Shown here one piece after another: positions 31,601 through 34,600 of a stretch of 64,000 bases of DNA (its first letter is position 1; every line of letters starts with the position of its first letter). The stretch is taken from the NCBI RefSeq assembly GCF_044324875.1, contig NZ_CP172185.1. One strand, given 5' to 3'. The DNA comes from Escherichia coli (GTDB lineage Bacteria; Pseudomonadota; Gammaproteobacteria; Enterobacterales; Enterobacteriaceae). Position numbers: made by a program.

Positions 31601-34600
31601 GGAGACTGTGGTGAAAAGAGTTAATTCCCGGAGTGACTGGCAGGATGCCAATCAATGATCGGAAGCATGCCAAATCGTGATCGATTGTGATGCCAAACTG
31701 TGATCGGAGATGGATGCCAAATCATGATCGATTCGAATGCCAAACTGCGATCGATTCAGATGCCATTTTGCATTGTCTGTCTTCTCATCATATATGGCTG
31801 TGTTTCTGCGGTGCGCAAATGCTCTGCACGGACATGCCCGTAGCTGCCACGATGAGTGATGAGAAGCCGGCAAAGCATTTTTGATGCAGTGAAGTTCTCC
31901 AGGGAGACTAAGGTGATGGTGGTGGGGGGACCATATTCTCTGTACATAAGATGGTGGTGTGTGGAGGTGAGATGTACTCAGGGAAAACTTTCTTCTGCGT
32001 TCTGGTCGTTGTCTGTTATCCCTGACCACCATTGTTTTTGGCATTGTGAGTCTGATTCCGGATGTATGGCACGGTCGTTTTTTGCCGTATGCCTGCGTGC
32101 CTGTGTTCAGTTCAGAGCAATTAACTCATCCGGCATGGAGAATTCCTGTGTGTAATGCGGTAAGAAATGACTGACATGCATGTTATATGTGAAGGGGCGT
32201 GAGACGACATAATCAGTATGGTTGTTCTTCTGGTTGTAAAACGCGTTCGTTTTCCGGGATAGATGACGACGAAGTTAACTGACGAATAGGATGTTCCTGA
32301 TGGTCTTTTCAGGGAGCGCAGATATACGGAGTAAGAAAAATAATTCCAGAGTAAGGTTGTCTGTTTTTTAACCAGTAAAGTTCCATGCCAGATGTGAAAA
32401 CGGGAAACCAACATTCAGTCTGCATGGATGTCTGAAGATGTTGAGAATGTCGGATATGGTACTATATACACATATTTTACTAAGTATTTTTACTAAGCAT
32501 TTCAGTAAGTGTTATACACACATTCTCACAAACAATTCTACAAGTGTTTTCATTAAGCATTGCTGTACACATTGCTTTGTATGATACACATCCCGTTTAG
32601 TAAATCTTTACGTTAACTAAAATCTGTTTAATGCTGCTGTAAAACTAACCTTCCTGTTTAAGCAATCCATCTGCTATTCGATTTTGCTAATGTGACGTTT
32701 AACCTTTCCTGAGCTTTTGAGTTTTGAGTTTTGTGGTTTGTGGTTTGTGGTTTGTGTTTCGACGTTAGCATGAGAAAAGTATTTTTACGCTAAATCAACC
32801 CGAACTTTCCTGAAGTAATCTGACGTTCTTTTCGATGTGCTTACGACGATTCTGTTAAACGACTTTCTGGATGTTTTGATAACGATCAGCCTGAGGTGTG
32901 CATTAACGATTCCTGACGTTTTGCTTTTTCATGTAAGGTCATTGTTTTCGTCATGATGTGATTCATCTTGCATTGCGAAAGTGTGATGATTGGTTTTGGT
33001 GTTTTGTCGTGGATGCGGTTTACGTTATCGGTGGTTAAGCGTTTATGGTGTGTTGAAAAGTAACATACTCAAGATAAGAAAATCGATTCTGATGGGGATG
33101 ATCTTGTTACGACGTTATCTGTAAACAGGTTTTCAGCGTGTCATTTCGCATCCGCGATTGAGCGATGTTGTTAAGCTGCAGGTTTGATTTGCATTGTCTG
33201 GATGCGTTTCTGGTGTTTTGTTGATTCGTTTCCCTTCTGACTTTGTCGTTTTTAAATCCATTCGCTGTTGTTGTGTGTTTTTACCCTGCGTGCAGTGAAC
33301 CGCCCCGGGAATCCTGGAGACTAAACTCCCTGAGAAAGAGGTAAACAGAATGACTAAAAATACTCGTTTTTCCCCCGAAGTCCGTCAGAGGGCGATTCGT
33401 ATGGTTCTGGAAAGTCAGGGCGAATATGACTCACAGTGGGCGGCAATTTGTTCCATTGCCCCAAAGATTGGCTGTACACCGGAGACTCTGCGTGTCTGGG
33501 TACGCCAGCATGAGCGGGATACCGGAGGCGGTGATGGCGGGCTCACCACCGCTGAACGTCAGCGTCTGAAAGAGCTGGAACGTGAAAATCGTGAACTGCG
33601 CCGCAGTAACGATATCCTTCGCCAGGCTTCCGCTTATTTTGCGAAGGCGGAGTTCGACCGCCTCTGGAAAAAGTGATGCCACTGCTGGATAAGCTGCGTA
33701 AGCTGTACGGGGTCGGACCGGTATGCAGTGAACTACATATTGCCCCGTCAACGTATTACCACTGTCAGCAACAGCGACATCATCCTGATAAACGCAGTGC
33801 CCGTGCGCAGCGCGATGACTGGCTGAAGAAAGAGATACTGCGCGTATACGATGGGAATCATCAGGTATACGGTGTGCGTAAAGTCTGGCGTCAGTTGTTA
33901 CGGGAAGGAATCAGGGTAGCCAGATGTACAGTGGCGCGCCTCATGGCGGTTATGGGACTTGCCGGTGTTCTCCGGGGTAAAAAGGTCCGCACTACCGTCA
34001 GCCGGAAAGCCGTTGCCGCAGGCGACCGCGTAAACCGTCAGTTTGTGGCAGAACGTCCTGACCAGTTGTGGGTGGCTGATTTTACTTACGTCAGCACATG
34101 GCAGGGGGTCGTCTATGTGGCGTTCATCATTGATGTGTTTGCCGGATACATCGTGGGGTGGCGGGTCTCATCGTCTATGGAAACGACATTCGTGCTGGAT
34201 GCTCTGGAGCAGGCGTTATGGGCCCGTCGACCGTCCGGCACAGTCCATCACAGTGATAAAGGTTCTCAGTATGTATCGCTGGCCTACACACAGCGGCTTA
34301 AGGAAGCCGGATTACTGGCATCAACAGGAAGTACTGGTGACTCGTATGACAACGCGATGGCGGAGAGCATCAATGGCCTTTACAAAGCGGAGGTAATACA
34401 CCGTAAGAGCTGGAAAAACCGGACAGAAGTGGAGCTGGCCACACTCACGTGGGTGGACTGGTATAACAATCGACGATTGCTGGAAAGGCTGGGCCATATC
34501 CCACCGGCAGAAGCAGAAAAAGCTTATTATGCTTCCATCGGAAACGATGATCTGGCAGCCTGAGTTCACAGATAAAACACTCTCCAGGAAACCCGGGGCG

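Follow-up and report, generated by a model that had tools for sequence, protein, structure and literature searches.

A GT-rich stretch of Escherichia coli DNA belongs to a long non-coding region, probably a spacer or leader, before a replication-protein-like gene

Anatomy of the locus

We analysed a stretch of 64 kb of Escherichia coli DNA, referred to here as the window, in which a non-coding region lies between a leftward backbone gene of ~315 amino acids (27957-28904, minus strand) and a rightward gene of the YfjJ/YagK type. The features of the region are as follows, from left to right.

28905-29133, no strand assigned: left end of the ancestral intergenic region, which aligns with homologues L001-L003 and L005
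29134-31772, minus strand: IS21-family insertion, copy 2 of three identical copies (exact identity with 606-3246 and 62792 onward)
31779-32329, plus strand: G-rich, GT-skewed non-coding segment, delimited by alignment and BLAST boundaries (query positions 349 and 548-556)
32330-32470, plus strand: conserved block with which the unit linked to the YfjJ-like gene begins (27 variants, mean pairwise identity 0.87-0.92)
32466-32605, plus strand: degenerate direct repeats of the type ATACACRTATTTTACTAAG, varying from ~3 to 8 units across lineages
32606-33295, plus strand: body of the GT-rich, T-rich, C-poor non-coding stretch
32715-32759, plus strand: heptamer tandem array (Tandem Repeats Finder, period 7, 6.4 copies)
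33296-34605, plus strand: IS3-family insertion (IS629-type) of 1310 bp, with ends TGAACCGCCCCGGG...CCCGGGGCGGTTCA
34609-34732, plus strand: promoter-proximal end (identity 0.91-0.94)
34733-35464, plus strand: YfjJ/YagK-type ('inovirus Gp2 family') gene of 732 bp (Pfam PF11726, 8e-37; PF23343 REP_ORF2-G2P, 3e-7)

The flanks of both insertion sequences were read directly. The IS21-family copy has a TTGTCT target duplication (29128-29133 and 31773-31778), and terminal 23/47-nt repeats at 31643-31765. The IS3-family element, which we take to be IS629, lies 127 nt ahead of the YfjJ-like start codon and contains an IS3-type frameshift pseudoknot (Rfam ALIL); copies 99.9% identical to it are annotated as 'IS3 family transposase' in E. 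coli. It interrupts the GT-rich stretch with a CAG duplication (33293-33295 and 34606-34608) at its two flanks, as an earlier note on this DNA had described. That note overlooked the presence of IS21 copy 2 inside the same ancestral region. Two simple insertions, each with a target duplication, have split what was once one intergenic region; 31779-33295 is its middle part, and the region runs on beyond the far side of each element. Before the insertions it comprised 28905-29133, 31779-33295 and 34609-34732, a length of ~1.87 kb.

The base content of 31779-33295 on the plus strand is A 23.2, C 16.9, G 24.3 and T 35.5%, giving a GC skew of +0.18 and an AT skew of -0.21. The description of this stretch as GT-rich is well founded, for its G+T content of 59.9% is the highest of any 1517-bp segment in the 64 kb (mean 51.8%, sd 2.2). 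The GC content of the non-coding region, 0.33-0.48, is below that of its surroundings. The segment 28905-29133 is very AT-rich (GC 0.33-0.34); it adjoins the start of the leftward gene and carries phased A-tracts with a periodicity of 10-11.5 bp (p 0.005); the annotated start of a homologue of that gene maps to ~28829. On the other side of the IS21 copy, the segment 31779-32329 has no conserved ORF, and is present only where the same leftward gene pair occurs (L001-L003 and L005). Other DNA takes its place in L004, L006 and L061.

The conserved block at 32330-32470 contains an inverted repeat, with TCCATGCCAGA at 32382-32392 and TCTGCATGGA at 32419-32428. This is followed by TTGAGA (32441-32446) and TGG-TACTAT/TATATA (32457-32468), the latter resembling an extended -10 element. 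A position weight matrix places a candidate promoter here (~32441-32470) that is conserved in 85% of the sequences. A stricter consensus promoter scan made no call at 32441-32470, and promoter-like matches are no commoner in the region than in shuffled sequences. A-tracts are phased over 32300-32599 (p<0.005). The direct repeats that come next are unequal in length, and just one copy in the window lies within 3 mismatches of the consensus. Short motifs are scattered through the body of the stretch (TTCCTGA four times, GACGTT five times), which has several indel hot spots. No intrinsic-terminator-like sites were found in 31773-33295.

The short tandem repeats to which the earlier note drew attention are present, as a 7-bp array reading GAGTTTT twice, then GTGGTTT three times, plus partial copies. 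Our comparison set for the region had 27 distinct variants including the window, and all of the other 26 have just GAG(A/T)TTT(C/T)G(A/T)GTTT at this position. The array is thus a 35-nt slippage expansion that is private to the window, a property that the earlier note overlooked. A heptamer tract of 6.4 copies upstream of a gene might suggest phase variation, with a (contingency) promoter region whose output to the downstream gene is set by the number of heptamers, and repeat copy number does differ at several sites. Yet the tract is expanded in only one of the 27 variants, it lies ~700 nt from the start codon (discounting the IS) rather than between promoter elements, and IS629 now stands between it and the gene. 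We consider such a role highly improbable.

The promoter-proximal end has a palindrome, CGGTAAAGTTTTACCG, at 34668-34683, and a 25-nt box (34678-34702) that recurs at 41602-41626 (two occurrences, zero expected). A hairpin at 34693-34734 covers the Shine-Dalgarno sequence GGAG (34719-34722) and the start of the ATG. Its predicted stability is -13.2 kcal/mol (z -1.7), and it is invariant across 24 distinct rows of the alignment. This end is recognisable in relatives from Enterobacter, Serratia and Rouxiella. The interval delimited in the earlier note leaves out the best-conserved control sequence, at 34660-34732.

Coding potential, rate of change and RNA structure

Mechanical ORFs of 97-130 codons can be drawn at 31856-32155 (plus strand), 32121-32414 (minus) and 31652-32044 (minus). 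None is conserved in the homologues and none matches a protein family, so the absence of a convincing ORF reported earlier is borne out. Open frames differ in both frame and length between lineages, and the minus-strand ORF is read in different frames. Six-frame translation searched against Pfam at E<=1 returned no family. Period-3 power is at most 1.8 throughout the region, where the 95th percentile of the null is 2.2 and real genes give 2.5-4.9. PGAP has placed no pseudogene under the region at any listed place among 2417 E. coli matches. The earlier note had named evidence of a decayed gene remnant as grounds against its own reading; Pfam, period-3 power, PGAP and ORF conservation all fail to support such a remnant, as does NCBIfam for the neighbouring and inserted ORFs. 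Indels in the region are frequent, located at repeat sites, and not multiples of three. The lack of protein homology and of codon signal, together with these non-triplet indels, gives no support to a decayed gene or pseudogene. The 82-aa 'hypothetical protein' called by PGAP inside some homologues is probably spurious.

The region changes at close to the neutral rate. Over the 27 distinct variants, mean pairwise identity is 0.887 for the leader, against 0.896 for 4-fold sites and 0.947 for codon positions 1+2 of the adjacent gene, a comparison that is blurred by recombination (for example at the breakpoint in strain LH50-c described below). Some blocks of the region reach 0.90-0.93. Polarised substitutions per site are asymmetric, with C>T at 0.73 compared to G>A at 0.60, and T>C at 0.29 compared to A>G at 0.43. 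From the counts we estimate the asymmetry to be moderately significant, at ~z 2.5 for T>C versus A>G and z 1.3 for C>T versus G>A. These rates predict roughly the observed T/C and A/G ratios. The skew of the region agrees in sign with the skew of co-oriented genes at 4-fold sites, to which codon bias could add; genes of the opposite orientation have the T-over-A skew on their own sense strand. In 78-nt intervals, C exceeds G in 27% for the sense RNA and 72% for the antisense.

A long ORF-free stretch following a conserved promoter-like block could encode a functional non-coding RNA on either strand, either structured, or an sRNA, or an unstructured sponge for protein or sRNA (such as a CA-rich antisense transcript). 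Two further observations point the same way. There is a promoter-like site on the minus strand within the proximal box, and a predicted long-range helix (~33130-33170 with 34650-34680) is kept in >96% of cells. However, neither the window nor two intact homologues, L001 and L061, has an Rfam 15 match (E<=1) that overlaps the region. The consensus folds from sliding RNAalifold are weak: energies per 120 columns run from -1 to -10 kcal/mol, and on the plus strand z against column shuffles is close to 0. Within the long-range helix the changes are nearly all one-sided transitions; pairing is 98.5% observed and 97.5% after shuffling, and two-sided change occurs in five of 68 pairs, no more than shuffled controls give (147/500). 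One class of homologues, the 'long class', lacks the 5' half of this helix altogether. Taken with the neutral rate of change, this makes a functional RNA very unlikely.

Homologues, the adjacent protein and a second region

Homologues of the region are found in 1815 of 5426 complete E. coli genomes, where annotation is lacking or limited to small 'hypothetical' ORFs; strains with an intact copy include IMT16316, MRE162 and LH50-c. Wherever the flank is long enough, the region is followed by the 732-bp gene of the Gp2 family. The length from the anchor to the ATG is 935-1087 nt despite a divergence of ~10-20%. In E. coli LH50-c the right-hand genes are 98.6% identical and region A (the region studied here) only 85%, with a breakpoint near 34664. 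Five viral and three metagenome contigs matching a 20-mer anchor proved to be chance matches inside unrelated coding DNA. Relatives in other genera have the same synteny and share the proximal box. Their gaps, of 281-1105 bp, are short and not GT-rich; of the four other genera examined, three have gaps shorter than 410 bp (281-407 bp).

These data bear on whether the region could be purely a relic, made of decayed cargo genes and insertions at a hot spot of island turnover, with no present function and no meaningful transcription. The left neighbours of the region vary, with homology boundaries at 32127 and 32334, and the ~830 bp that the long class has in addition hold a 176-aa ORF that belongs to no known family (NCBIfam). 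Relatives that manage with 281-407 bp, the near-neutral divergence and the tolerance of IS elements are also in keeping with a relic. Against it, none of the six frames retains a trace of a protein family or residual codon periodicity, and pseudogenes are absent at the listed places among the 2417 matches. The composition resembles a present-day asymmetric equilibrium rather than a fading relic, and a decayed gene would leave unexplained why the skew has a uniform sign over 1.5 kb that matches the strand of the downstream gene. We regard a pure relic as rather unlikely.

The product of the YfjJ-like gene contains an HUH motif (HYHVILLL) and a YLxK motif on translation, and matches PF23343 with 30.9 bits, where the cut-off is 27.8; it is a candidate HUH endonuclease. 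A sequence search of the PDB with this protein gave no match. A scan of a set of genome contigs with it returned just two loci. In the window, a second YfjJ-like gene lies downstream of another skewed region at 39.4-41.0 kb (region B), itself preceded by a DUF3987/YfjI-family gene. The earlier note saw in region A the strand-complementary flavour of region B and proposed checking for an inversion. Neither idea survived. Both regions are T-rich on the plus strand (35.5% in A, 38.5% in B) with a negative AT skew, and only the balance of G and C differs. What would lend some credit to region A being an inverted and diverged duplicate is that part of region B has a GC skew of opposite sign (-0.53 at 40000-40299). 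A sensitive BLAST comparison (word size 7, both strands) gave nothing significant; the best plus-strand match was 24 nt (E 0.06), and the best minus-strand match 40 nt at 77.5% identity (E 0.06). Moreover A and B are each conserved separately, with their own homologues, in the same orientation and upstream of different YfjJ-like genes with the HUH motif. An inverted duplication is almost certainly not the explanation.

The two regions do share a motif. TCATCNGNCATGGA occurs exactly in A (32126) and in B (39973), with a related copy at 32415. In both, the distance from it to the downstream ATG is ~1.0 kb, and behind it come TACTATA(T/A) and direct repeats whose copy number varies. This arrangement raises the question of whether the region is an origin or binding array used in cis by the adjacent HUH (Rep-like) protein, with region B performing the same role for the second YfjJ-like gene. 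The protein would then nick or bind at the inverted repeat and block at 32382-32470, and the direct repeats downstream would be iterons, much as filamentous phages have an intergenic origin ahead of gene II. Both YfjJ-like proteins have the HUH and YLxK motifs and match REP_ORF2-G2P. The plus strands of Ff phages are T-rich, as is that of the region. In E. coli Nissle in vivo, a gain in copy number of an integrase gene and a Gp2-family gene has been described (preprint, 10.1101/364505), which would also fit an origin.

Several results argue against it. The repeats are degenerate, and near-identical units at helical spacing, as expected of iterons, were not found. There is no hairpin with compensatory change, and the inverted repeat (32382-32392 with 32419-32428) is conserved in the A family without covariation. 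The match of TCATCNGNCATGGA between A and B is borderline (E 0.06), and the element is missing both in the A-type region of LH50-c and in the corresponding gaps of relatives from Rouxiella, Enterobacter, Serratia and Morganellaceae. Few DnaA-box-like sites occur, and they are unconserved; a candidate cluster of three boxes in 130 bp was rejected since it is not conserved in homologues. The K-12 genes yfjJ and yagK (in CP4-57 and CP4-6) have upstream gaps of 152 bp and 270 bp, without homology to region A or B. Among plasmid and phage records, three plasmids and no phage have similar sequence, none of them annotated as an origin. The region also changes at a neutral rate. An origin is therefore distinctly improbable. 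The more specific proposal, that A and B are cognate cis sites (a putative nick or binding site formed by TCATCNGNCATGGA and the inverted repeat, with a repeat array) of two paralogous HUH Rep-like YfjJ proteins, is slightly less probable again. Were it true, there would be an unrecognised module for rolling-circle-type replication or mobilisation in about one third of E. coli genomes, inside 'cryptic' islands.

A proposed, mostly neutral leader or spacer and its relation to known systems

The GT-rich stretch is real but ordinary, forming part of a long non-coding spacer or leader before a replication-protein-like gene. On balance we favour, with modest confidence, the view that this is a mostly neutral untranslated leader or spacer, upstream of a YfjJ/YagK-type HUH gene and with a skew that follows the sense strand. 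The ~1.87 kb region separates two divergently oriented backbone modules of an E. coli genomic island of the CP4-57/PAI type. Most of it would have no sequence-specific function; it drifts at about the synonymous rate. Short repeats are gained and lost by slippage, the heptamer array being one private case, and IS insertions are tolerated. The G+T richness is most likely the equilibrium of a mutation bias linked to the sense strand. Such a bias would imply at least occasional transcription of the stretch in the direction of the downstream gene, giving a long untranslated leader that is C-poor and unstructured. This leader RNA would present few Rho loading sites, and its antisense would be C-rich. 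Function is more likely to reside at the two ends, in the conserved, curved, promoter-like block at 32330-32600 and in the promoter-proximal ~75-nt box with the hairpin covering the Shine-Dalgarno sequence (34660-34734), which is the only part recognisable in other genera. As a counterpoint, the retained length and the blocks with identities of 0.90-0.93 hint at constraint beyond a mostly neutral leader.

This analysis removes a false lead, in that the GT-rich stretch, its repeats and its supposed mirror partner mark no new element. It also corrects the local annotation to one ancestral intergenic region split by two IS insertions. About one third of complete E. coli genomes keep at least ~1 kb of unannotated, strand-skewed non-coding DNA before an uncharacterised HUH-motif gene, with a short proximal box that is shared by other genera. 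Should YfjJ-type proteins turn out to be active nickases, these upstream regions would be the first place to seek their substrates. A literature search found no description of this particular region; publications on YfjJ, YagK or 'inovirus Gp2' treat a gene of unknown function and do not mention the DNA upstream.

The region can be compared with four known systems. Like simple-sequence contingency loci it has a heptanucleotide tandem tract upstream of a gene, but the expansion is private, far from promoter elements, and gives no sign of switching. In the iteron origins of SaPI/PICI-type satellites, repeats flank an AT-rich segment beside a replication gene. Here too an AT-rich segment close to genes of replication type contains short direct repeats that vary in copy number; however the repeats are degenerate, and region A is not beside the DUF3987 gene. 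The Ff intergenic region, with its origin and packaging signal before gene II, is similar in that our region directly precedes an 'inovirus Gp2' gene with HUH and Y motifs, and in the T-rich plus strand. It differs in that the present region has no sequence similarity to phage records and no conserved hairpins, is 3-4 times longer, and is neutral and located in a chromosomal island. Lastly, the long untranslated leaders and AT-rich intergenic regions of horizontally acquired islands in enterobacteria are usually described as bound by H-NS and subject to Rho. Like these, the region is non-coding and of lower GC content, has phased A-tracts at two sub-regions, lies between divergent island modules, is a frequent IS target, and ends in a hairpin that covers the Shine-Dalgarno sequence. 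The sense strand here is unusually C-poor, in contrast to those leaders, and so, if transcribed, it would be a poor substrate for Rho and not a Rho-regulated leader.

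Composition, insertions and extent

The stretch at 31779-33295 contains A 23.2, C 16.9, G 24.3 and T 35.5% by direct reading. It had been noted earlier as GT-rich, and its G+T content of 59.9% is indeed the maximum among all 1517-bp windows in the 64 kb (mean 51.8%, sd 2.2). The AT skew is negative and the GC skew positive over the whole length. The copies of GAGTTTT (two) and GTGGTTT (three) described in the earlier note were recovered by Tandem Repeats Finder as an array of 6.4 copies of a 7-bp unit at 32715-32759. We aligned 27 distinct variants, including the window. Because all 26 others have only GAG(A/T)TTT(C/T)G(A/T)GTTT at this site, the array is a 35-nt expansion private to the window.

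Features of the region and its surroundings
Left neighbour, - strand: gene of ~315 aa, function unknown
29134-31772: IS21-family copy, a simple insertion flanked by a TTGTCT duplication
33142-33295 + 34609-34647: equivalent of an 82-aa 'hypothetical protein' annotated in two homologous loci (L001 10324-10572, - strand; E. coli LH50-c, L061 6716-6964, - strand)
33296-34605: IS3-family element of 1310 bp, with inverted ends of the TGAACCGCCCCGGG type and CAG on both flanks
34733-35464, + strand: right neighbour, YfjJ-like gene 1, encoding a YagK/YfjJ-family protein (PF11726, 8e-37; REP_ORF2-G2P, 3e-7)
39424-40985: region B, upstream of YfjJ-like gene 2 (40986-41552)

The element at 33296-34605 contains the IS3-type frameshift pseudoknot, and E. 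coli copies 99.9% identical to it carry the annotation 'IS3 family transposase'. The proposed IS629 hit stands as an IS3-family insertion, which is probably IS629. The IS21-family element has three identical copies in the window (606-3246, 29134-31772 and 62792-end), which points to recent transposition. Repeats of 23/47 nt, of ATGCCAAAYYGTGATCG, lie at the istA-proximal end of these copies (31643-31765). Removal of both IS elements restores a single intergenic region of ~1870 bp (28905-29133 + 31779-33295 + 34609-34732), here called region A. Uninterrupted regions in E. coli genomes align with it over its full length, and it is larger than the 31779-33295 interval.

Coding capacity, sites at the ends and substitution pattern

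The earlier statement that there is no convincing ORF held. Mechanical ORFs of 97-130 aa overlap the stretch, none of which proves real. Six-frame translation gave no Pfam match at E<=1, and period-3 power never rises above the shuffle range, which nearby real genes exceed. Indels across the 27 variants are mostly non-multiples of three. The 82-aa - strand ORF called by PGAP in some genomes (WP_000573210/215) differs in frame and length between lineages; it is probably a spurious call, a by-product of the T-poor strand. On these grounds we rejected a coding region.

A structured RNA was likewise rejected. Neither the window nor the intact homologues L001 and L061 gave an Rfam match overlapping the region at E<=1. 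When the 27-sequence alignment was folded in sliding consensus windows, energies were -1 to -10 kcal/mol per 120 columns and z on the + strand was near 0. Pairing in a long-range helix predicted between about 33130-33170 and 34650-34680 persists almost only through one-sided transitions, at 98.5% against 97.5% in shuffled controls. The 5' half of the helix is absent from a 'long class' of homologues.

Phasing of A-tracts at 10-11.5 bp is typical of curved promoter DNA. It is confined to 28905-29133 (running into 31849) and 32300-32599 (both p<=0.005), the most AT-rich parts of the region. A PWM scan found a promoter-like site near 32441-32470 in 85% of variants, although shuffled sequences give such matches at least as often and a stricter consensus scan made no call there. 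Downstream lie degenerate ATACACRTATTTTACTAAG-type units of variable copy number, only one of which in the window is within 3 mismatches of consensus. Three DnaA-box-like 9-mers in 130 bp showed no conservation in the homologues. The densest such cluster in the window lies elsewhere, with four 9-mers (TTATNCACA, <=1 mismatch) within 150 bp at ~24931-25080.

At the right-hand end an invariant hairpin of moderate stability (34693-34734; -13.2 kcal/mol, z -1.7) takes in the SD and the first part of the ATG. Two copies of the 25-nt box TTACCGCAnTGnTTAATGATGTGAA lie in the window (0 expected by chance), at 34678-34702 just upstream of YfjJ-like gene 1 and at 41602-41626 just downstream of YfjJ-like gene 2. 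Since each copy is preceded by a CGGTAAA..TTTACCG-type palindrome, the box might act as a common operator or promoter element.

Mean pairwise identity in gap-free columns is 0.887 for the leader, the non-coding DNA up to the ATG of YfjJ-like gene 1. The adjacent gene gives 0.896 at 4-fold sites and 0.947 at codon positions 1+2. As a whole, the region therefore drifts at about the synonymous rate. The degree of conservation varies along its length, with identities of 0.87-0.92 at 32404-32463, 0.89-0.93 at 33000-33085 and 0.91-0.94 in the last 70 nt. Alignment occupancy collapses at five or six copy-number-variable repeat sites, among them the heptamer array.

Substitutions polarised by parsimony on a neighbour-joining tree are strand-asymmetric per site (C>T 0.73 versus G>A 0.60; T>C 0.29 versus A>G 0.43). 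These rates imply an equilibrium T/C of about 2.5 and A/G of about 1.4, not far from the 2.26 and 1.21 of the sequence itself. This closeness indicates that the composition is currently maintained, not inherited from a vanished gene. Replication bias does not fit the signs at 4-fold sites. Those in co-oriented genes have the same signs as the region (GC skew +0.12, AT skew -0.14), and in oppositely oriented genes T exceeds A on their own sense strand. The skew fits a sense-strand-linked bias, either transcription-associated mutation or, for genes, codon preference. C exceeds G in 27% of 78-nt windows for the sense RNA and in 72% for the antisense, and the sense RNA would be C-poor.

Region B and a candidate origin

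The composition had been described as the strand-complementary flavour of region B, with a possible inversion. This was not borne out. Both are T-rich on the + strand (35.5% in the stretch, 38.5% in region B) and the difference is confined to G/C balance. BLAST at word size 7 found nothing significant between them on either strand, and separate homologues of region B occur in E. coli IMT16316 and LH50-c, in unchanged orientation 5' of the second Gp2-type gene. Inversion was rejected for these reasons.

No other 1.5 kb of the window is as rich in T as region B (39.5% T). CACTCTAT is present in it five times at about 40197-40240, and T-rich repeats of ~20 nt lie at 40000-40130. Region B is matched at 97% identity in LH50-c and partially conserved in IMT16316, where the repeat array is far shorter, and always lies just 5' of the second YfjJ-like gene.

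The only feature common to regions A and B is TCATCNGNCATGGA, exact at 32126-32139 and 39973-39986, with variants at 32382-32395 (- strand) and 32415-32428. In both, a copy ~1 kb 5' of the start codon is followed by TACTATA(T/A) and a short direct-repeat array. The significance of this sharing is borderline (E 0.06), and TCATCNGNCATGGA is found neither in the equivalent gaps of relatives belonging to other genera nor in the A-type region that LH50-c carries.

YfjJ-like protein 1 has HUH (HYHVILLL) and YLxK motifs, and protein 2 has HAHVVFWI and YLAK. The region might then be an origin for the HUH protein. In favour are the gene family, the richness of the strand in T, and a motif and architecture common to A and B. 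A preprint (bioRxiv 10.1101/364505) also reports copy-number gain of a Gp2-family gene in E. coli Nissle, which could mean that such an element is able to amplify. Yet the repeats are degenerate, there is no conserved hairpin, the region is missing in relatives and its rate is neutral, so we regard an origin as improbable. A non-coding leader or spacer that is mostly neutral, with functional parts of small size at its ends, fits better than any specific element. The literature searched treats the YfjJ-like/Gp2-family gene as of unknown function and does not mention this upstream DNA.

Distribution and relatives

The stretch is a real compositional outlier and part of a widely shared unannotated region. 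Its 1517 bp are matched in 1815 of 5426 complete E. coli genomes at ~77-90% identity, nearly all chromosomal; only three plasmid records and no phage record match. The E. coli matches are unannotated or lie under small 'hypothetical' ORFs. In LH50-c and six annotated examples, a 732-bp 'inovirus Gp2 family' gene is directly preceded by the homologue, a gap of 1.56-2.8 kb. Within the stretch, the left ~550 bp co-occurs with the left-hand gene pair, and the sequence from ~32330 onward with the Gp2 gene. A 20-mer taken from the block of highest conservation was used to scan metagenome contigs and brought in another 45 loci, and the gene is present at every one with A-type homology and sufficient downstream sequence. 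Eight contigs (five viral) had chance matches to the 20-mer only and were rejected as homologues. In the 'long class' (L005 5316-5846, - strand, and 12 metagenome loci) an extra ~830 bp replaces the equivalent of about 33000-33250; it carries a 176-aa - strand ORF with no match in Pfam or NCBIfam.

Compared with the window, LH50-c (L061 5487-13369) is 98.6% identical in the right-hand genes from 34664 and 97% in region B, but only ~85% in region A. Recombination is evident, with a breakpoint near 34664, and the islands are mosaics joined at the proximal box.

Loci in Rouxiella, Enterobacter, Serratia and Morganellaceae (L062-L066) encode proteins 36-43% identical to YfjJ-like protein 1 and share the synteny: DUF932, antirestriction, GTPase and hypothetical (270-322 aa) genes on one strand, a gap, then YfjJ-like and AlpA genes on the other. 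This backbone synteny is old and kept across Enterobacterales. Relatedness to the proximal box in the window can be recognised in the ~75 nt that precede the start codon. The gaps themselves measure 281-1105 bp and show neither GT-richness nor similarity to A or B, and in K-12 those upstream of yfjJ (152 bp) and yagK (270 bp) have no homology. For these reasons the long GT-rich body is a lineage-specific expansion, not a conserved partner of the YfjJ-like gene.
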